Below are positions 4,913 to 64,000 of a stretch of 64,000 nt of DNA, one piece after another; the stretch's first letter is position 1; every line of letters starts with the position of its first letter. The translations under genes were made by a program, and so were the position numbers. Under the pieces are notes generated by a model that was not told the DNA's origin, ran no database searches, and saw only the letters and a program-made list of their open reading frames with translations. Where the stretch lies: positions 1 to 64,000 of IMG/VR virus record IMGVR_UViG_2657245717_000001; one strand, 5' to 3'. Source of the DNA: a virus. Lineage: Duplodnaviria; Caudoviricetes.

Positions 4913-5551
4913 ATGAACTTCGGATGGGGACCAATCATCGGAGGGGTGCTCGGCGCGCTGTTAGCCGGCGCGTTCACCCTGCTCGGGCAGCGGTTTGCGA
5001 GGCACCGCCAACTAGAAGACCACAAGCACGCTCGGCAACTTCACAAGGAAAGCCTGCTGCACAGCGCGGTAGTCCAGCACGAGGACCGGCTGTTCACGCT
5101 ACGCAAGGAGGCGGGGGAGAGGTTCATCAAGGCGGCGATGGGCGTCATGCCGATCTCCGAGTACGCCTTGGCTCTCGCCGGCATGTATGAGCGGTGGGAC
5201 GATGACGATGTGAAGCCGGGTGTGGCGACGATGCGCATGTCTCGCGCTGACTGGGCGCCTCCGGTGGACTTGCGGGCGGCGATCCCTAAGGCGGACCGCA
5301 TGACGGACCTGGTCGCCGCTGGGGCGCTGTTGACCCCGGCGCAGCTTCAGAACCTTACGGAGACAGCGAGACAGATCACCCTTGCGGCCTACGACGTGAT
5401 GGACGCCCGCCCGCACATCGACGAGGGCGCAGACCCGACGACCTTTGTCGCTGGGCGGATTCAGGAGTACATCAAGCTGGTGGACGGTTTCGCTGAGCAG
5501 TTGGCCGAGCAGCTCGACGCACGCGACCGGGTGCAGGTGGCCTTGGGCTAG
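4913..5551 (+). CDS. Hypothetical protein with N-terminal TM helix (moron)
   Basis: Hydrophobic N-terminus then helical domain; TTA at 4961; followed by a terminator. Confidence 0.65.
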   Translation: MNFGWGPIIGGVLGALLAGAFTLLGQRFARHRQLEDHKHARQLHKESLLHSAVVQHEDRLFTLRKEAGERFIKAAMGVMPISEYALALAGMYERWDDDDVKPGVATMRMSRADWAPPVDLRAAIPKADRMTDLVAAGALLTPAQLQNLTETARQITLAAYDVMDARPHIDEGADPTTFVAGRIQEYIKLVDGFAEQLAEQLDARDRVQVALG

Positions 5552-55959: not shown

Positions 55960-58098
55960 GTGCTCACCCGGCCCCGCAACCACGAGCCCATCCCCTGGCG
56001 CCACGGAGTCATCACCACCCCCCTCTACACCGCCGCCACCATCTACGCCGGCGGCACCACCCTCGGCGTCGCCACCGACCTCGGCGCCACCCTCCCCACC
56101 GGCTGGATGATGCTCGGCTCCGCCGCCGGCGTCGCCACCGCCGCCGTCTCCCGCTGGGTCCGCACCGCCCACACCAACGGCATCCCCAACACCAAGCCCC
56201 GCCGCTGGTACCACACCGCGTTCACCACCACCTGGACCACCGCCACCTACGCCTGGCTCACCTGGACCGCCCACGACACCCCCTGGACCCTCGCGTCCGC
56301 CGCGACCGTCGCCCTCGGCGCCGCCGCGTTCACCCCCCTGTACGCCATCGACCGCAGCCTCCGCTCCGACGTCATCGCCGCCCAGTGGGCCGCCGAAGCC
56401 GCCGCCGACGCACCCGCCGACAAGAGCGAGTGGGAGCAGCTTTTCGAAGCGGTCGGTGCCCGCGGCGTTCAGGTCGGCGAACCCACTCAGACCCGAGGCG
56501 GCTACTCCCTGCCCATCACCCTCACCCAGTCCCCCTACGAGGCTGTCGTCCAGCTCCTCAAGTCCGTCGAAACCCGCAAGGGCGACCTCCGGCCCGGCTC
56601 CCTCGACCTGCGCCGCGACATCAACCACGCCGCATCCCAGGCCACCCTCCACGTCACCACCCGCAACGTCCTCGCCGAGTCCATCGACCTGCCCGCCGAC
56701 GACCACCCCCTCACCATCAACGAACCCCTCACCCTCGGCGTCCTCGAATCCGGCGACCCCTGGGAGATCAAGTTCCGGCAGAACAGCGTGTTCATCGCCG
56801 GGAAGAAGGGCTCCGGCAAGTCCGTCCTCCTCCACGTCATCATCAGCGTCGTCACCCGCTGCACCGACGCCGTCATCTGGATGATCGACATGGCCGAAGG
56901 GAACACCGCCAAGCGGTGGCTTCGCCCCTGGGCCCAGCAGTGGAAGGACCGCAACGGCCAGACCATCGACCGGCCCATCCTCGACTGGGTCGCCACCACC
57001 CCCGACGAAGCCGTCCGCCTCCTCCAGGCCTCCGTCGCCGTCGCCGACGGACGCGCCCGCCGCATGCCCGGCGGGAAGATCCGCCCCAAGACGACCATCC
57101 CGGCTCTCATCGTCATCACCGACGAGAACCCCGAACTCATGTCCCGCGTCCCCGACGCGATCGTCGCCAAGCAGCGCGGCATCAAGAAGGGCCGCAAGGC
57201 CGCCGTCGACTACATCGACGCAGCCCAGCGCGGCACCGGCCCCAACACCGGCGGCGGCGAAGTCATGTCCCAGTACGACACCGTCATCGGCGGACGCTTC
57301 CCCAAGCGGCAGGAGGGCCAGTTCGTCTTCCCCGACCACTACCAGACCGTCGACCTGTCCAAGCTCCCCGGCAACGGCGCCTTCTACATCCTCGACGAAG
57401 ACCGCTCCAAGGGCGCCGGCCCCGAGAAGACCAAGGGCTACTTCGCCTACGACGACGACGAGTACCCCGACGGCCGCGAAGCCACCGTCATCGAAGACCT
57501 CGCCGCCGCCCGCTGGACCATCCGCCCCGACCTCGACACCGCCTCCCAGCAGGACGCCGAACCCTACGGCTACTCCACCCGCTGGAACCCCGACCGCATC
57601 GACTGGCTCATCGACGCCCTCAACCTGCCCATGCCCGCCGGCGCCAGGCCCCGCCCGCAGCCCTCCGGGCCCGCCAAGCGCACCACCGGCGGCCCCATGC
57701 CGACCCTGCCGTCCATCAACGACTACATCCAGCGCGGCCAGCAGTACAAGCAGCAGTCCCAGCCGGGCCCCGCCCCCGAGCCGGCCGTTGAGGACGCCGA
57801 CGTCGAGCGGCTCTTCACCGAGCTGGAGGAGTACACCCGGCAGGCCGCCGTGAACCTCACCAAGCCGCAGCCGTCCGCCGACAAGCGCCACCCCCGCCGC
57901 GACGAGGTCACCGACTGGGTTCGTGACGCCGGGCAGGACGGCATCACCGTCGCCGAAGTCCGCGCCCGCCTCGCCCAGCGCTACCCCGGCGAGAAGCCCC
58001 CGTCGGACACCGCCGTCCAGAACTGGTTCACGGCGCACCCGAACATCACCAAGCCCGGCCGCGGCACCTACGTGTGGACCGAAACCCCCGACGCCTGA
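55960..58098 (+). CDS. traB: TraB-like FtsK/SpoIIIE conjugative DNA translocase
   Basis: N-terminal TMs; Walker A GKKGSGKS; W.ID...G; DWVA; Walker B IVITDE; AQRGT; C-terminal wHTH. Confidence 0.88.
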   Translation: MLTRPRNHEPIPWRHGVITTPLYTAATIYAGGTTLGVATDLGATLPTGWMMLGSAAGVATAAVSRWVRTAHTNGIPNTKPRRWYHTAFTTTWTTATYAWLTWTAHDTPWTLASAATVALGAAAFTPLYAIDRSLRSDVIAAQWAAEAAADAPADKSEWEQLFEAVGARGVQVGEPTQTRGGYSLPITLTQSPYEAVVQLLKSVETRKGDLRPGSLDLRRDINHAASQATLHVTTRNVLAESIDLPADDHPLTINEPLTLGVLESGDPWEIKFRQNSVFIAGKKGSGKSVLLHVIISVVTRCTDAVIWMIDMAEGNTAKRWLRPWAQQWKDRNGQTIDRPILDWVATTPDEAVRLLQASVAVADGRARRMPGGKIRPKTTIPALIVITDENPELMSRVPDAIVAKQRGIKKGRKAAVDYIDAAQRGTGPNTGGGEVMSQYDTVIGGRFPKRQEGQFVFPDHYQTVDLSKLPGNGAFYILDEDRSKGAGPEKTKGYFAYDDDEYPDGREATVIEDLAAARWTIRPDLDTASQQDAEPYGYSTRWNPDRIDWLIDALNLPMPAGARPRPQPSGPAKRTTGGPMPTLPSINDYIQRGQQYKQQSQPGPAPEPAVEDADVERLFTELEEYTRQAAVNLTKPQPSADKRHPRRDEVTDWVRDAGQDGITVAEVRARLAQRYPGEKPPSDTAVQNWFTAHPNITKPGRGTYVWTETPDA

Positions 58099-58152: not shown

Positions 58153-58752
58153 ATGACCAGCAGCCTCCTCGCCCGCCGCCGGGCCCGCCGCGTGTGGCGG
58201 CAGGCCACCACCCTCACCCACCTCGCCCACCTCACCGCCGACTGGCTCGACGGCACCCTCCCCGCCCACATCACCTACGGACCCAACCCCGACCCCGAAA
58301 CCACCGGCATCACCCGCACCCTCGCCACCGTCAACCGCGCCGGCTACCTCACCACCTCCTCACAGCCCGGCCACCCCCCGACCGTCGGTCACGACGGCTC
58401 CGTGTACGAGCAGCGCGCCGCCATCACCGGCCACATCGCCGACCCGACGCTCCTCCACCGCCTCATCGACACGGTCGAACGCGCCGGCCTGACCGTCATC
58501 ACCCACACCGCGGACATCTCGACCGGCCCCGACTGGATGATCGCCACCCGGCAGGACGGGCAGCCCACGGCAGCGTTCGGTGAGTACGTCACCCCCGTGC
58601 AGCTCCGCGCGGACTGGCGCGGCATCAGCGACCAGGCCCACGCTGCGGTCGCCGCCGCCGTGCAGGTCACTGTCGTCGACCCCGTGTGGGGCCGCAACGA
58701 CCGGTTCTGGCCCGCCCTCGCACACCTCACCGCCGCACCCGCCACCACCTGA
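58153..58752 (+). CDS. Conserved actinobacterial plasmid protein (DUF6919-like)
   Basis: W..A.TL..LA.L.A.WL.G; D.ET; NRAG.LT.SSQPG; QRAA; DPVWGRND..W. Confidence 0.7.
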   Translation: MTSSLLARRRARRVWRQATTLTHLAHLTADWLDGTLPAHITYGPNPDPETTGITRTLATVNRAGYLTTSSQPGHPPTVGHDGSVYEQRAAITGHIADPTLLHRLIDTVERAGLTVITHTADISTGPDWMIATRQDGQPTAAFGEYVTPVQLRADWRGISDQAHAAVAAAVQVTVVDPVWGRNDRFWPALAHLTAAPATT

Positions 58753-58800: not shown

Positions 58801-59429
58801 ATGCCCGCAACGCTCCTCACCCCCGACCAGCTTGACCAGCAGGCCGCCGCCATCTACGACACCGCGGCGTGGCAGCAGATCGTCTCCGGCTGGACCCTCA
58901 CCGCCGCCGAACCCGCGCCCCGCACCACCGACCGGGCCGGCGAGCAGACCACGGTGGGGGACTGGCGGGACCTCCTCAACGGCACCGTAGACGACCTCAT
59001 CGCCACCGCCACCACAACCCTCCCCCGGCCGCACCCGCCGAACGGCCCCTCCCCGGCAGGCTCGGCGCGATCCTCCCCGACCGGCTCCACGCCTGGCGAC
59101 GCATCGGCCAGCCCGACATCCGGCCCAGCGTCCAGCTCGCCTACGCCCGCCGCCTGCTCGTGGAGTGGGGCTGGCAGAACCGCCCCTACCGGCTCCGCGA
59201 CGGCTGGGGTGCCCGCTGCCTGTGCGGGGCACTGCTGTCCGCCCACCGCCTCGGCTACGGCAGCCTCGACACCGCGAACCGGTCCGCGGCATGGCTGATG
59301 ACGGGGCTGCGACATGAGGGGTGGGCGGGCCTGATCGGCGAGTGGAACCGGGCACCGGGCCGCACGGCGGAGCAGGCCCTCGCCCTGGTCGACACGGTCA
59401 CGGCACAGGCGGCGCAGGCTGGGGAGTAA
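58801..59429 (+). CDS. Plasmid protein (DUF6197-like C-terminus) split by an apparent 1-nt frameshift near 59022
   Basis: One extra C in TCCCCCGG joins MPATLL...TTTLP to PAAPAERPLPGR...GW......G.RCLCGA...WN..PGRT. Confidence 0.65.
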
Positions 59430-59441
59430 ACACACACGAAG

Positions 59442-59470
59442 AAGGCCCGGACCAACCTGGTCCGGGCCTT
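59442..59470. terminator. Bidirectional hairpin terminator
   Basis: AAGGCCCGGACCA-ACC-TGGTCCGGGCCTT between convergent operons. Confidence 0.8.
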
Positions 59471-59483
59471 ACTCATGCCGCCA

Positions 59484-60485
59484 TCACCGCCGCAGCACCG
59501 ACACCAACTTGGTCGGGTCCAGCACCGGCGCACCGTCCGGGCCCTTCATGTGCTGGTCGATCCAGATCGGACGGTTCGCCTTACGGCTCGGGTAGTAGTG
59601 GTTCCGCCAATGTCCCCGCACCAGCCAACGATGCCGGTACGACTTCCCCGCCCCCTCGCCGGCGCCACGCTCCTCAGCGTGGACCGAACGATGCCGCAAC
59701 TGCACGTACCGCGTCGCGGCCAGCAAAGCGGGATCGATCCGTGCGATGCGCTTCGCCGCGGACCGAGGGGTTTCCACCCGGTCTTCCCGTACCAAGGTCT
59801 GCCCCATCAGCAGCCACGTCACCAGCAGAGCCCGCTCAGCCTGCTCCGCCCTCCCAGCCGCCCGCGACAGGCTCTCCATCTCAGCCAGCGAGCGGGCCGA
59901 CGTGTCCTCCGGAGCCGCCGACAACCACCCCGGGACCCGGCCGAACGGCAGGTACCCCGCTCCCAGGCACACCAGCTCCGGAGGGTTGCTCGCGCGTCGC
60001 TGCCGCACCTCGTCACGCGAGAGAGCAGGCAGGCCCGACAGCGGGTTGCCCTTTGCGAGGTCAGTGAGCCAGTCCTCACGGTGACACCACAGCCGGTACT
60101 GGACCCGGCCCTCATGCTCCGCCCAGCTCACCGCGACAACCGGGGAGCCGACCACATCACCGTCGAACCGGTCCGTGACAGGCACCTCCCACACCAGCAG
60201 ACCTCGCGGCGCCGGCACGTCCTCCGGGTGCAGCCGGTACGACGGCAGCGCCACTCCCGCAGCGACCGCCATCCGCGTCATGTCAGCACTCGCGAAGAAC
60301 AGGTCCGCCGAAGGCAGCACGTCCGCCCACGTCCCCGCAGCCAGCCACTCCGGCCGAGCCTCCTCCGGCGGAAGGCCAGCGGCCCAAGCGGACGGCCCGC
60401 CCAGCGGCCCCGGATCGCGGAGCCACTGGACCAGGTCGGCGCGGAGGCCCGGCAGGTCCCGGGCCGTCAGCGTCGTCGTCCCCAC
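59484..60485 (-). CDS. Conserved phage protein with C-terminal VRGHWR motif
   Basis: HRWLVRGHWRNHYYP.....PIWI..H.KGP.GAP; last gene of the leftward operon. Confidence 0.7.
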   Translation of the reverse strand: MGTTTLTARDLPGLRADLVQWLRDPGPLGGPSAWAAGLPPEEARPEWLAAGTWADVLPSADLFFASADMTRMAVAAGVALPSYRLHPEDVPAPRGLLVWEVPVTDRFDGDVVGSPVVAVSWAEHEGRVQYRLWCHREDWLTDLAKGNPLSGLPALSRDEVRQRRASNPPELVCLGAGYLPFGRVPGWLSAAPEDTSARSLAEMESLSRAAGRAEQAERALLVTWLLMGQTLVREDRVETPRSAAKRIARIDPALLAATRYVQLRHRSVHAEERGAGEGAGKSYRHRWLVRGHWRNHYYPSRKANRPIWIDQHMKGPDGAPVLDPTKLVSVLRR

Positions 60486-60495
60486 AAGAGCCCCC

Positions 60496-61062
60496 TCAGA
60501 CGGACGCGCGGTCGGTGCGGGCCCCAGCGCCAGGCCGGGACTTGAGCGCGGCCCGCGCCTGCTCCGCCAGGTACACAGCCCGCGGCTGCGCCCAGCCGTC
60601 AAGCTGCACCCGCGCCAGCGGTTCGACCTTCAGCCGCTGCATCGCCCTCGATGCGGCCTTCGCCGGCTCCTTCGCCTTCGACCCCATCTCCCGGGCGATG
60701 TCGTCCAGCGTCAGCACGTCGAACCGGTCGCAGATCTGCCCCAGGTCGATGCCCTCAAGGCACGCCTTCAGATCCACGTCGCCGTCCTCGGTGGTGGGGT
60801 AGCCGTCAAACTCCCCCTCCTCGATCTCGTACGGGCCGAGGAACTCGTCACCCGCGAGCGACACCCCGGCCGGCAGCGCCTCGTTGATCGCGTCGCGGTA
60901 CGCCTTGCAGATCAGGTCATACGCGCCGGACTTCTCCATCAGCTCGCACCAGTCGCTGTCGCCTCCGCTCAGGTAGTCGGCGACGTCCGCGTCGGGGCTG
61001 GTCGAGTAGGCGCTGACCTTGCTCCAGTTGCCCCAGGACGTGTACGGGCGGTTCGTGGTCAT
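60496..61062 (-). CDS. Acidic domain (paralog of 62588-62914) fused to a C-terminal HTH-like domain
   Basis: Shared AIN.ALP.GV.L.GDEF.GP motif; tail LTLDDIAREMG...RPGAGARTD; AAGGAG RBS. Confidence 0.75.
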   Translation of the reverse strand: MTTNRPYTSWGNWSKVSAYSTSPDADVADYLSGGDSDWCELMEKSGAYDLICKAYRDAINEALPAGVSLAGDEFLGPYEIEEGEFDGYPTTEDGDVDLKACLEGIDLGQICDRFDVLTLDDIAREMGSKAKEPAKAASRAMQRLKVEPLARVQLDGWAQPRAVYLAEQARAALKSRPGAGARTDRASV

Positions 61063-61095
61063 GTCAGTTCTCCTTGGGTGTTGAGGGTGTGAGGT

Positions 61096-61638
61096 TCAGA
61101 GGGCGGCGATGTCGGACTTGATGCCGGCGAAGACCCGGGCGACGAGGTCGAAGCGCTCACGCTCGCCGGACAGGAAGCGGATCTCGTACTCGCGGGCGCC
61201 GGAGTGCTGGGCGTAGAGGCGTCCGTCGGTGACGTCGTAGTAGACCTTGCTGACCGCGCAGGCGATGCCAGCCGCACGCCCGTTGGCGATGCCGCGTCCG
61301 TCGAAGGAGGCGGAGGAGACGTTGCCGGACTTGTAGGCGGTGGTCTCCAGGCCGAGGTGCTGGTGGAAGTCGTTGAGGTAGATGCGGTCCATGCCGTTCT
61401 TCTGCCAGCGGCGCCCGCCGATGGCGAGCATCGTCTCGACGGAGAGGGTGGGGGTCTTGCGGGTGCGGCGGGCCTTGAGGGCGCCGATGGTGAGGCGGTG
61501 GGCGAGGGAGGCGGTGTCGATGACCCAGCGGCCGGCGTTCTTGGTGGCGGTGACCACGCCTCGGCGGCACCAGGCGCGGATGGTGGCGACGGTGACGTTG
61601 GCCTGGGTGGCGGCTGCGGTGGTGGTGATGGTGGTCAT
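61096..61638 (-). CDS. HTH-containing protein (MerR/Xis-like N-terminus)
   Basis: TTAAATQANVTVATIRAWCRRG.V.A.K..GRWVID; C-domain RWQKNGMDRIYLN. Confidence 0.75.
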   Translation of the reverse strand: MTTITTTAAATQANVTVATIRAWCRRGVVTATKNAGRWVIDTASLAHRLTIGALKARRTRKTPTLSVETMLAIGGRRWQKNGMDRIYLNDFHQHLGLETTAYKSGNVSSASFDGRGIANGRAAGIACAVSKVYYDVTDGRLYAQHSGAREYEIRFLSGERERFDLVARVFAGIKSDIAAL

Positions 61639-61664
61639 CGGGTCCCCCTCGGTGTCGATGACAT

Positions 61665-61695
61665 AACCTTGCCGTAGGTACGGCGAGGTTGTCAA
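61665..61695 (-). promoter_or_regulatory. Leftward promoter with overlapping inverted-repeat operator
   Basis: TTGACA-N18-CAAGGT; AACCTTGCCGTA-GG-TACGGCGAGGTT (11 of 12 paired). Confidence 0.75.
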
Positions 61696-61771
61696 GCGGT
61701 AGACCTAAACGGCCTCCGAAACGGGTGGCGTAGCTACCTACGCCTTCGTCCGCCAGCCACGCTTCAGGCGC

Positions 61772-62251
61772 TCACTTCCCGCCCGCACGACCGTCCGACA
61801 ACCCCAACTCCTTCCGTATGCGGTAAACGTTGCTCGGCGCGATACCCAACTTGTTCGCGATCCCCAAGGGGGGCGTCCCGGCCTCCGACTCACGACGCAC
61901 CGCAGAACGAACCTCGGATGAGTGGGATCTGTTCTTACGGGATAGGCCCATCGCTGCCAGTTGACCTTTAACCACGTGCACCTCCACCCCCACCGTGCTG
62001 GCGATCTGCTCCAAACCCACCTTCGCTTCCCTCAGCGCGCGAATCTGTCGCTTCTGCGCTTCTGTCACCTTCGGTGCTTGCCGTAGAGGCAGGCCCATCT
62101 TGTAGCGCAGCATGTAGACAGCGCTGCGTTCGATGCCGAGCAAACGCGCGATCTCCTTGCCAGGGGTGCCTGCACCCCATTCCCGCTTGAAGAGGTCCAG
62201 GTCGAGGCTGCTGAGATCGATCCGTCGACCAGCCTTGGGTGATGTATCCAT
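61772..62251 (-). CDS. Triple-HTH DNA-binding protein
   Basis: Three G....EIA..LG/VG repeats; atypical codon usage. Confidence 0.65.
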   Translation of the reverse strand: MDTSPKAGRRIDLSSLDLDLFKREWGAGTPGKEIARLLGIERSAVYMLRYKMGLPLRQAPKVTEAQKRQIRALREAKVGLEQIASTVGVEVHVVKGQLAAMGLSRKNRSHSSEVRSAVRRESEAGTPPLGIANKLGIAPSNVYRIRKELGLSDGRAGGK

Positions 62252-62504
62252 GCTCAGTCCAACGGTGGAGTCGCCGGGCTGGTCACTTGAGCTACCCGGC
62301 GGGGCATAGCAGCCCGGACAAACGCCCGAATGTGCGCCACGCTAGATCTGCACGGCTCGGGAGACGTATCCCTTGAGCGTCCCCGCGCCTCGATGGGCAC
62401 TACCCGAGCCGTGCAAACAGACTGGTCCGCCCCGTGACGGAGGCGTTGACCACTGGCCCCGCGACCCACATCCCCCAGGGTCGCGGGGCCTCTTCATGCC
62501 CCCC

Positions 62505-62533
62505 TTGTACTTCCTAGAATAGGAAGCTACAGT
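62505..62533 (+). promoter_or_regulatory. Promoter with an operator in the spacer
   Basis: TTGTAC-N17-TACAGT; CTTCCTA-GAA-TAGGAAG; preceded by a strong hairpin at about 62455-62490. Confidence 0.8.
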
Positions 62534-62587
62534 GGTGTCATGAAGTCAGGGGAACAGCCCCAGACTCAACCGGAAGGACCCGGCACC

Positions 62588-62914
62588 ATGGCGACCACCA
62601 CCAGCTACGGCAGCTTCTACAACCACACCAACGCCCTCAACGTCGGCTCCTACATCGCCGACGCATGCAGCTCCGCCGACAGCGACTGGCTGGAGCGCAT
62701 GGAAACCGCAGGCGCCTTCGACCGCATCGAGTCCGACTTCTCCAACGCCATCAACGACGCCCTGCCCGGCGGCGTCGCCCTCTCCGGGGACGAGTTCATC
62801 GGCCCGGCCTACGAGGAGGACTACGAGGACGGTGTCGCCGACCTGGACATCTCCAAGGTCGTCAAGGGCATCGACTTCTGGGCCATCGTCCAGAAGCACG
62901 ACGTCGGCATCTGA
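62588..62914 (+). CDS. Small acidic protein, anti-defence/Acr candidate
   Basis: 108 aa, D/E-rich, GGAAGGA RBS (alternative leaderless ATG at 62540); upstream of an Aca2-like gene. Confidence 0.75.
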   Translation: MATTTSYGSFYNHTNALNVGSYIADACSSADSDWLERMETAGAFDRIESDFSNAINDALPGGVALSGDEFIGPAYEEDYEDGVADLDISKVVKGIDFWAIVQKHDVGI

Positions 62915-62976
62915 GTAGTGAACCCCCAGTGCCCCCGTCCTAGCGCGGGGGCACAGCCATGACGAAGGGCCTACCC

Positions 62977-63399
62977 ATGTCCGAGCAGCAGTACAGCGAC
63001 CCGCCCGGCATGCCCGACGACGAGCGGATGACCGACGCCGAGTTCAAGGTCGTCCGCGAGTACCTGGGCCTCACCGGAGACGGGATCGCCGAATACCTGA
63101 AGGTGACACCGCGTACGGTGCGGCACTGGGAGCAGGGCAAGTACCCCATCCCAGACGGAGTGCGGCTCGCGGTCAAGCGGCTGGAGGCGGAGGCTAGCCG
63201 CCAGGTCGCCGCCGGTGTGAAGGCGCTGATGGACGCTCCCGAACCCGTGCTTGTGCTGGCCCGCACTGAGGCCGAGCGTCCCGCCGGGAACGACTGGCCG
63301 CTCGGCTGGTCGCGGGCCGTGGCAGCTCGTATTGCTCAGGAAGTTCCGGGGCTTTCGATCATGTACAGCGACCAGGTTTCCAGCGCTGAGGAGAACTAG
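62977..63399 (+). CDS. Aca2/YdiL (DUF1870)-like HTH regulator
   Basis: MTDAEFKVVREYLGLT...IAEYL.V..RTVRHWEQG..PIPDGV...W.RAVAA resembles the Aca2 pattern as I recall it; start 62959, 62977 or 63028. Confidence 0.75.
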   Translation: MSEQQYSDPPGMPDDERMTDAEFKVVREYLGLTGDGIAEYLKVTPRTVRHWEQGKYPIPDGVRLAVKRLEAEASRQVAAGVKALMDAPEPVLVLARTEAERPAGNDWPLGWSRAVAARIAQEVPGLSIMYSDQVSSAEEN

Positions 63400-63427
63400 C
63401 GTTCGGGGGCGCCAGGTGACGGCAGAC

Positions 63428-64000
63428 CTACTTCACCTGGCGCCACACACCGCAATCCCGTGTGGTGAACGACCCGTCCGTCGCCTCGATCGTCACCTCG
63501 ATGGACTTCGCGTCACCCGACACGAACTGGTTGTCGATGATGTCGCCGCCGTCTGTGGACCGCTCCCAGTAGCAGTCGCTCAAGCCGTCCTCGCCGCCCG
63601 TCGTCCGATACGTGCCCGGCCGCACCGACCGCGCCCCCACCTCCGACGACACCTCATACGAGCCGCCCAACAGCAACTGCTCCGCCTTCCCGTCGAGCAC
63701 CTCCAGGACGGTCTTCTCCCAGCGCGGGCACAGCACCGGCACCCCCGCCCGCAACGCGAGCTTCTCGTCGCCCTCCGGCGGATTCGCGCGGGTCAGCCAC
63801 GACGACGGCGGCGCGTCCGGGTCGTTCCGCTCCTCATACGAGTCGAGCGTCTCGCACACGTCGTCCACGTAGTCGCTGGCCGTCTCGTACGCCGGGTCCG
63901 GCATCGTCCAGCCCTCAGCCTCCGCGCCGGCATCCACACGCTCCTGCGGCGACTCGATGTGCACCTCCTCCGTCGCCGACGGCGCCACCGACGGACTCGC
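63428..64000 (-). CDS. Secreted/lipoprotein-like protein (5' end outside the window)
   Basis: PGTYRT....DCYWER....IIDN......V.I...D..F.T..CG.W domain. Confidence 0.7.
   Translation of the reverse strand, partial: ASPSVAPSATEEVHIESPQERVDAGAEAEGWTMPDPAYETASDYVDDVCETLDSYEERNDPDAPPSSWLTRANPPEGDEKLALRAGVPVLCPRWEKTVLEVLDGKAEQLLLGGSYEVSSEVGARSVRPGTYRTTGGEDGLSDCYWERSTDGGDIIDNQFVSGDAKSIEVTIEATDGSFTTRDCGVWRQVK

Follow-up and report, generated by a model that had tools for sequence, protein, structure and literature searches.

The stretch of DNA analysed here (hereafter the window) comprises positions 1 to 64,000 of the virus record IMGVR_UViG_2657245717_000001, an 88,079-bp record of a pZL12-like Streptomyces phage-plasmid that is rated 97% complete. 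Within the window, the GC content of which is 66-73%, the region 59484-63399 carries two operons on opposite strands, each with its own promoter, palindromic operator and helix-turn-helix (HTH) protein and each encoding one copy of a small acidic domain, referred to below as family A (Table 1). The plus-strand operon is formed by a promoter, a leader with two hairpins, a small acidic cargo protein and an HTH protein assigned by its sequence to the Aca2 family of regulators; the minus-strand operon encodes a MerR-like HTH protein, a paralogue of the acidic protein extended by a tail, and a protein with the motif VRGHWR, the predicted model of which has the fold of AcrVA2. An original prediction, made from the letters of the sequence, had described an Aca2-type acr-aca layout and, on the other strand, a second operon with a TTGACA promoter, a different inverted repeat and the same order of genes; both descriptions were borne out, the HTH gene behind the small acidic gene passing the Aca2/YdiL cut-off. 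The strongest point, the AcrVA2 fold of the modelled VRGHWR protein, had been missed, and the three-HTH gene lying between the two operons was absent from that description.

Table 1. Features of the two operons and their surroundings (positions are those of the window)
Feature	Position	Strand	Remark
promoter TTGTAC-17-TACAGT	62505-62533	plus	-35 element 62505-62510, -10 element 62528-62533
operator, perfect inverted repeat CTTCCTA-GAA-TAGGAAG	62510-62526	plus	in promoter spacer
5' leader, 48 nt, two conserved hairpins	62540-62587	plus	predicted; transcription start inferred
leader hairpin 1, GUC-A-GGGG ... CCCC-A-GAC	62544-62566	plus	predicted, conserved
leader hairpin 2, CCGG-AAGGAC-CCGG	62570-62583	plus	contains ribosome-binding site
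family A acidic protein, 108 aa	62588-62914	plus	cargo of Aca2-type cassette
intercistronic 10-bp GC-rich hairpin	62929-62954	plus	between cargo and aca2-like genes; z -1.8
Aca2/YdiL (DUF1870) HTH protein, 140 aa	62977-63399	plus	PF08965; closest homologues 140 aa
12-bp perfect hairpin	63408-63444		between convergent aca2-like and lipoprotein genes; z -3.4
conserved non-coding stretch, 197 bp	62300-62496		upstream of both operons
three-HTH gene, 159-aa basic protein, about three HTH units	61772-62251	minus	several weak HTH matches
promoter TTGACA-18-CAAGGT	61695-61666	minus	TTGACA at 61695-61690
operator, imperfect palindrome ACCTCGCCGTA-CC-TACGGCAAGGT	61689-61666	minus	within promoter
MerR/excisionase-type HTH protein, 180 aa	61096-61638	minus	first gene; start set by homologues
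family A domain (residues 1-116) with tail of about 70 aa, 188 aa, pI 4.48	60496-61062	minus	family profile 6e-34
AcrVA2/FinQ-fold protein (predicted), 332-333 aa	59484-60485 (about)	minus	last gene; starts about 10 nt after preceding stop

By sequence comparison, the HTH protein of the plus-strand operon is a member of the Aca2 family. It matched PF08965 (Aca2_YdiL) over residues 24-92 with 25.4 bits, a small margin above the cut-off of 23.8 (25.2 bits in a six-frame search), and in a search of PDB sequences its residues 24-117 were aligned with residues 5-102 of Aca2 chains of 120-121 residues (8w35_A, E 2.6e-4; 7vjo_B, E 2.9e-4). The Aca2 chains 7ezy and 7b5j were also matched, the four Aca2 proteins lying at E 2.6e-4 to 2e-3, and the Aca2/DUF1870 likeness put forward in the original prediction is thus upheld by a hidden Markov model as well as by PDB matches at E of about 3e-4. 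Many of the 572 homologues of the protein are named DUF1870. An alternative start at 62959 would give a protein of 146 residues; the start listed in Table 1 is the most likely one.

The locus was compared with others gathered by several routes, some of them via the repressor itself, and the counts given here and below are no unbiased census; genes in the collected loci were called with a script based on the G+C content of third codon positions (GC3), and several domain assignments were made by eye. A search with the repressor protein yielded 15 viral loci. The aca2-like gene of the window follows the gene for the acidic protein on the same strand at a distance of 62 nt, and the order of cargo gene and then repressor gene was found in all 14 informative viral loci, while 11 of them have the operator, with at most one mismatch, upstream of the Aca2-like gene. 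The motif CTTCCT-N5-AGGAAG occurs exactly once in the window and once in the 88-kb record, 0.10 occurrences being expected by chance when up to one mismatch is allowed. A pattern scan found the combination of operator, -10 element and leader exactly in five viral stretches; a scan of metagenomes with operator and -10 element returned 37 stretches, five of which have the leader, and the 32 leaderless ones look like chance matches.

An alignment of seven loci showed the operator arms, the -10 element, both leader hairpins and the ribosome-binding site to be invariant; the sequence 5' of the -35 element is unrelated among these loci, and the cargo proteins either share just 47% identity or are unrelated. 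In the Streptomyces anulatus plasmid CP109516, an acidic protein with only 47% identity is followed by a DUF1870 gene, and promoter, operator and leader hardly differ from those of the window. Elsewhere the operator varies (CTTCCTA/TAGGAAG, CACCCTA/TAGGGTG, CGTCCTA/TAGGACG, GGTCGTA/TACGACC and CTTCCA/TGGAAG), and in both types of operon the two-fold symmetry is kept despite the changes in sequence, as expected from a dimeric HTH repressor that co-evolves with its site. As for the promoter itself, the hexamers and the inverted repeat in their spacer are present as first described, whereas the term consensus-like was too generous: 7 of the 12 consensus positions are matched, and a scanner for sigma-70-like consensus promoters reported none in 59300-63500.

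The leader is the second conserved part of the cassette. The short hairpin GGGG-AACAG-CCCC noticed originally is indeed there, at 62549-62561, and proved to be the inner part of the longer conserved hairpin 1; both leader hairpins are conserved across cargo types. Among the 12 base pairs predicted from the leader alignments, two show a compensatory change, each in one sequence, and in the locus L031 GGGA/UCCC replaces GGGG/CCCC in the leader stem. The fold of the window leader taken alone is little better than that of shuffled sequence (z -1.7). The conservation is not that of a protein-coding sequence, since the ATG at 62540 is out of frame in the locus L039; a 124-aa reading of the cargo gene from this ATG was rejected on the same ground and because the homologues start with MxTTTSYG. 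Control at the RNA level had been proposed as a speculation, and the two hairpins conserved within the 5' untranslated region (5'UTR), which resemble those of ZF40, together with the compensatory stem change argue for it, the binding of RNA being a prediction. By analogy, the Aca2-like repressor may bind the leader hairpins too. Between cargo and repressor genes, the locus L039 has at 5345-5370 a hairpin of different sequence (z -3.7) in the same position as the intercistronic hairpin of the window; neither hairpin has a U tract. The intercistronic hairpin could set the ratio of cargo to repressor.

The acrIF8-aca2 operon of the Pectobacterium phage ZF40 (PMC13551039) is the characterised system to which the plus-strand operon can be compared most directly. 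The repressor family and the position of a small cargo gene 5' of the repressor gene are the same, and the two hairpins predicted in the 5'UTR of the window would be a close parallel to the arrangement in ZF40. The present operon differs in belonging to a phage-plasmid element of an actinomycete host, in a repressor that is about 20 aa longer and marginally over the family cut-off, in a cargo unrelated to AcrIF8, and in operator binding and repression that are predicted. It further differs in having the inverted repeat in the promoter spacer, a position from which it follows that the repeat is absent from the mRNA.

The cargo gene is the exchangeable part of this cassette. In a set that covers the viral loci and five leader-bearing metagenome loci, family A stands before an Aca2-like repressor in the window and in L039, L052, L056, L058 and L031, as well as in L066 with a different operator. 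A second family, B, occupies the same position in L053, L054, L059, L063 and L103, with extensions in L088 and L089, and lies behind a MerR-like gene in L051 and L069; two cargo groups initially called B and E were found to be homologous (35% identity, E 1e-19) and are treated as one family B. Three further small families of 56-71 aa were observed in L055, L057 and L061, and one of them is fused to B in L060. The cargo of L062 is a 108-aa protein outside the families named, and in L065 a 200-aa domain is fused directly to the Aca2 domain (PF08965, 27.3 bits). The 14 viral-locus cargoes for which it was computed have pI values of 4.05-5.19. No Pfam or PHROG family was found for the cargo families B to F, a match to TY-Chap3 (E 0.036) being below the threshold. 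The domains also recombine: A and B are fused in the protein P0014 (E 2e-16) and, as judged by eye, in orf41 of the Thermobifida phage P318, A is fused to an Aca2 domain in L035, and other acidic tails recur in varied combinations (by eye).

AcrIIA1 is an anti-CRISPR protein fused to its own HTH regulator. As in AcrIIA1, an inhibitor-type domain and a DNA-binding domain would be joined here in one chain, be it family A with its tail, A with the Aca2 domain (L035) or cargo with the Aca2 domain (L065); unlike in AcrIIA1, the domains are unrelated to those of that protein and DNA binding by the family A tail is a prediction. AcrIIA1 is described as an Acr that lowers Cas9 levels, in a report that also describes 'inhibitor islands' with Aca regulators (bioRxiv 10.64898/2026.02.23.707548).

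The two family A proteins of the window are true paralogues, as had been claimed (BLASTP, 40% identity over 119 residues, E 2e-22). The standalone 108-aa copy is strongly acidic (pI 4.05, 20 D+E against 5 K+R) with a GC3 of 0.95. An exhaustive search gathered 187 clusters of family A at E<=0.001, with a domain of about 105 aa that occurs by itself or with further parts attached to either end. An AlphaFold2 (AF2) model (pLDDT 82) predicts a small alpha/beta domain, in which the conserved block ALPxGVxLxGDEFxGP accounts for a beta-hairpin and a helix end. That the family is uncharacterised was confirmed: it has no family in Pfam, NCBIfam, PHROG or PADLOC and no match in a search of PDB sequences, and the homologues that carry names are all 'hypothetical'. 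Structure comparisons of the model gave no clear fold match in the PDB (Foldseek best E 1.1; wide VIA-align search best Z 4.3), a best score of 0.83 in the ESM Atlas, which is at chance level, and in BFVD only orf41 of phage P318 and unnamed proteins. Of the DNA-mimic anti-restriction proteins (Ocr, ArdA and Arn type), T4 Arn scored Z 3.3, which is among the chance-level rows, and the pI of 4.05 fits DNA mimicry and is not specific to it.

Of 401 sampled genomes of Streptomycetaceae, 8 contain family A, as do 9 plasmid records; its distribution is patchy and linked to mobile elements. The domain of phage P318 lies in the early replication region. Various HTH families were found by Pfam in a few of the 83 longer members, and in those of the proteins P0024-P0148 in which a DNA-binding domain precedes family A, the Met before TTTSYG is mostly retained (at least 17 of about 24, by eye), which points to recent fusions of genes or to internal starts from which the free domain is released as well. 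On the 455-kb linear plasmid pSCL3 of S. clavuligerus (locus L044, record 162327-170650), a gene for family A with tail directly follows those for a DEAD/DEAH helicase and a type I-E casA; this neighbourhood may be due to chance. DEAD/DEAH helicases are reported to be frequent in acr-aca2 operons (PMC13551039).

The neighbourhoods of acidic-domain homologues, to which the original prediction had looked for a check, showed a MerR-like or Aca2-like partner for 21 of the 27 family A copies examined, a MerR-like gene lying directly upstream in 14. The minus-strand operon of the window is of this MerR type. Its layout of TTGAC, palindrome and CAnAGT was seen in 11 further loci, the palindromes differing in sequence and being symmetric throughout. 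The 180-aa protein, with weak matches to Pfam HTH_17, MerR and phrog_2474, is the candidate autoregulator. The tail of the 188-aa protein, which ends in RPGxGARTD, is probably a winged HTH; the description of an HTH-like tail needs qualifying, as the window protein itself had no Pfam match in this part and HTH_17 matched 2 of 8 tail-type relatives (best E 0.0018). The order of a MerR-like gene, a gene for family A with tail and a gene for a protein of about 250-340 aa is met with again in five further pZL12-like plasmids and in prophage-like regions of chromosomes. Contigs from four runs of soil metatranscriptomes, which do not prove transcription, contain copies of 59436-60098 and 60571-61705 with 95-99% identity and run into unrelated sequence exactly at 59436 and 61705; from these ends, the three-gene operon occurs with other flanks too and apparently moves as one unit whose ends are fixed. 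The contigs leave 61712-63450 uncovered, which is neutral either way.

The last gene of this operon encodes the VRGHWR protein, for which readings of 372 aa and 278 aa were rejected, the homologues all having about 333 aa. Its AF2 model, built with 26 homologues (pLDDT 78, pTM 0.78), was compared by VIA-align with 48,161 representative chains, and AcrVA2 (7ci1_A) stood out with Z 10.0 (rmsd 5.3, 219 residues aligned), the next chain reaching Z 3.2; the alignment spans the whole protein (model 9-315, chain 0-316), and the top three Foldseek matches are AcrVA2 chains (E 0.013-0.079). As modelled, the protein therefore has the three-domain fold of AcrVA2. Sequence searches do not join the two families, and for this reason the protein is labelled AcrVA2-like rather than a proven member. 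The alignment of homologues shows W287, V289, G291 and W293 without variation and H292, R294 and N295 with almost none. AcrVA2 needs a C-terminal HxR motif (H286, R288, H291) to destroy Cas12a mRNA, and the plasmid protein FinQ is a homologue of it (bioRxiv 10.1101/2022.11.29.518452). The VRGHWRN block holds H292-W-R294-N-H at a distance from the C-terminus that matches the HxR motif of AcrVA2, to which it may correspond.

The likeness to AcrVA2 of Moraxella bovoculi (7ci1, 7ci2) lies in the predicted fold, with 219 of 296 residues aligned, and in a conserved candidate HxR-type motif near the C-terminus; as with AcrVA2 and FinQ, the genes are carried by plasmids and phages and Cas12a is not expected in the hosts. 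The protein is also similar in size, with 333 aa against about 300-320 aa in AcrVA2/FinQ. Its motif differs, being HxRxH against H286-x-R288-x-x-H291, and, unlike that of AcrVA2, its gene lies in an operon behind HTH regulators. Homologues occur on 72 plasmid records (Streptomyces, Rhodococcus, Mycobacterium and others) and 3 phage records, those with names being all 'hypothetical'. An AcrVA2-like gene follows the gene for family A with tail in 8 of 14 MerR-type operons and lies directly after the Aca2-like gene in L051, L063 and L066; being found behind both gene sets, it belongs to both kinds of operon.

The element that carries these operons is a conjugative phage-plasmid, as follows from a terminase on its sister plasmid, the synteny of a related plasmid with pZL12 and a TraB-like gene. 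The region 59400-63450 matches an 86-kb circular plasmid of Streptomyces albidoflavus, which also encodes a terminase, with 97-97.6% identity over 62% of its length, and partially other Streptomyces plasmids of 85-92 kb, among them pSLE1, which its authors describe as syntenic with the plasmid-phage pZL12 (PMC4487206). A TraB-like translocase gene is situated just upstream of the two operons, at 55960-58098. Two insertions distinguish the window from the sister plasmid, 61697-62299 (603 bp), which contains the three-HTH gene, and 62497-63427 (931 bp), which starts 8 nt 5' of the plus-strand promoter and contains exactly the promoter, leader, acidic gene, intercistronic hairpin, Aca2-like gene and terminator hairpin. 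In this comparison of sequences the plus-strand cassette is a discrete insertion. The slot adjoining the PhlD gene in sister phage-plasmids holds either the three-gene operon or a pair of family A and DUF1870 genes; a replication role for the three-gene operon was set aside, since CP109516 has such a pair in that slot.

The non-coding stretch between the insertions contains two perfect 13-nt inverted repeats (62349-62361/62403-62415 and 62455-62467/62478-62490). It is conserved at 92% in the sister plasmid and at 91-93% in the plasmids of Streptomyces sp. W9 and W75, where it is the only matching part of the 4-kb query, and its possible roles are those of a small RNA, of a platform for binding or of a hot spot for recombination where cassettes insert; no Rfam family was found above threshold in 59000-64000, this stretch included. 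The three-HTH gene has a GC3 of 0.72 against 0.91-0.96 in its neighbours. Its 159-aa product showed weak sub-threshold matches to a resolvase HTH, a carph-isopro domain and the model of the CRISPR repeat-binding protein Cbp1, and it might be a DNA-binding inhibitor or a further regulator of the island. The 12-bp hairpin behind the aca2-like gene is likely a two-way terminator. The gene converging on the cassette (63428-63988, minus strand) encodes an acidic lipoprotein-like protein with an Rv1352/Rv1906c domain (NCBIfam, E 4e-16) and is present in both sister plasmids. Between traB and the island lie a DUF6919 gene (58153-58752, E 2.7e-38) and, at 58801-59429, two overlapping reading frames with an apparent frame problem, against one gene of 630 nt in the sister plasmid.

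Anti-CRISPR loci are recognised from a pattern in which small, acidic and exchangeable genes are preceded by a regulator and a promoter that are conserved. The explanation that we consider probable, though well short of certain, is that the region is an accessory inhibitor island of a pZL12-like phage-plasmid, in which two self-repressed operons supply early, dose-limited inhibitors of host immunity or of rival elements; repression, control at the RNA level, the inhibitory activities (that of family A against defence among them) and their targets are what we infer from the anatomy of the locus. In such an island, operon 1 would be a swap-in cassette composed of the promoter with its palindromic operator, the two-hairpin leader, one cargo gene and the Aca2-family repressor, the accumulation of which would shut the plus-strand promoter; by analogy with ZF40 Aca2, the repressor may bind the leader hairpins as well. 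Operon 2, under its own palindromic operator, would provide the MerR-like HTH protein, a cargo domain with a probable winged HTH and the AcrVA2-fold protein. Family A, as an acidic alpha/beta domain of about 105 aa, would act by binding a target, and the AcrVA2-like protein would reduce how strongly a chosen target is expressed, in the way in which AcrVA2 acts on Cas12a mRNA. A bolder version, which we regard as improbable, sees in the small acidic domains (A, B and more) a mix-and-match kit of Streptomyces phage-plasmids and prophages, swapped in one Aca2-type cassette, fused to each other and to DNA-binding domains and not described previously, with family A as the targeting or control partner of the AcrVA2-like protein instead of an inhibitor in its own right, the fusion of A with an HTH and the AcrVA2-like enzyme being a programmable system that jointly silences a chosen host immune gene at the level of the DNA and of the nascent chain or mRNA.

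Several observations weigh against an inhibitor island. Neither HTH partner adjoins six of the 27 copies of family A; Aca2/YdiL regulators are not limited to acr loci, the family being matched also in an E. coli control; and the plus-strand promoter is weak by consensus. Family A has no likeness in sequence or fold to any known inhibitor, and its nearly invariant residues (Gly, Pro, Leu and Phe) are silent on mechanism. The AcrVA2 link comes only from a predicted model and structure comparison, phmmer and a 26-sequence profile having found no AcrVA2 match at E<=10 among all PDB sequences. In addition, FinQ-type relatives of AcrVA2 act in plasmid-plasmid conflict and not against CRISPR (bioRxiv 10.1101/2022.11.29.518452). 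An alternative to which we grant a limited likelihood is that the acidic cargoes, instead of serving in counter-defence, are factors of host takeover or competition (for example inhibitors of nucleoid or transcription proteins of the host, fertility inhibition, exclusion of rival phages and plasmids) and are produced early, likewise under Aca2-type control. The transfer of the F plasmid is inhibited by FinQ, and AcrVA2 homologues, which are spread over mobile elements, occur mostly where Cas12a is absent (bioRxiv 10.1101/2022.11.29.518452); the present element is itself conjugative, and Aca-regulated operons are said also to hold genes for 'mobile genetic element conflicts' (PMC13551039). However, the architecture, with variable small acidic genes before a conserved Aca, recombining domains and a patchy spread, is the one used to find anti-CRISPRs, and there is no pointer to a specific target of host takeover.

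It appears as improbable as the bolder version above that family A is an antitoxin-like neutralising domain, which, fused to or beside a DNA-binding domain such as Phd/YefM, RHH, HTH or winged HTH, autoregulates its operon and restrains a harmful partner; on equally doubtful terms, the partner in operon 2 would be the AcrVA2-like protein and the standalone copy a spare or trans-acting antidote. Phd/YefM (PF02604) is fused to family A in 4 of the 83 longer members, a finding that also counts against an inhibitor island, and N-terminal DNA-binding fusions are many (by eye). As in Phd/YefM antitoxins, a DNA-binding N-terminal domain is joined in these to a small acidic C-terminal one. The genes for family A with tail and for the AcrVA2-like protein are about 10 nt apart here and overlap by 4 nt in L030 and L037, and one copy of family A (L031) lies in an island rich in toxin-antitoxin genes. 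Unlike the short disordered tail of Phd/YefM antitoxins, however, family A is a folded domain of about 105 aa, and no toxin gene was seen adjoining it in the loci examined; neither copy in the window has PF02604 or an adjoining toxin-like gene. The cassettes of family A and Aca2 in the window, L039, L052, L056 and L058 lack a toxin-like third gene, unrelated cargo families are found with one and the same repressor and promoter, expressed AcrVA2 works on its own (bioRxiv 10.1101/2022.11.29.518452), and AcrVA2-like genes are found on 72 plasmid records against 9 with family A. Very improbable, finally, is a role of the operons in the life cycle, as an anti-repressor or a switch between plasmid and lytic states, with family A as a co-regulator binding HTH proteins. 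The frequent MerR-like or Aca2-like partners of family A, a cI-like repressor nearby in three chromosomal loci and the position of the P318 domain would fit such a role, but the sister plasmid does without the plus-strand cassette, which is therefore dispensable, and the three-gene operon is replaced by the A and DUF1870 pair in CP109516. Moreover, the same repressor is also preceded by unrelated cargo in place of family A, and this speaks against a specific partnership of A with the HTH protein.

We know of no anti-CRISPR or other counter-defence protein characterised for Streptomyces, and in literature searches aimed at other questions no title or abstract on such a protein was met with. The locus gives short, testable candidates in the form of one large new family (187 clusters) and at least four further cargo families, and the AcrVA2-fold family on 72 actinobacterial plasmid records constitutes a further candidate set. 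The mode of control by Aca2, through an operator and two leader hairpins, would be extended to the phage-plasmids of actinomycetes, and the conserved promoter, leader and repressor provide a search handle for more cargo. The inhibitors could be the reason why some plasmids and phages become established in antibiotic-producing strains and others do not, and they could act as off-switches for genome editing in antibiotic-producing bacteria.

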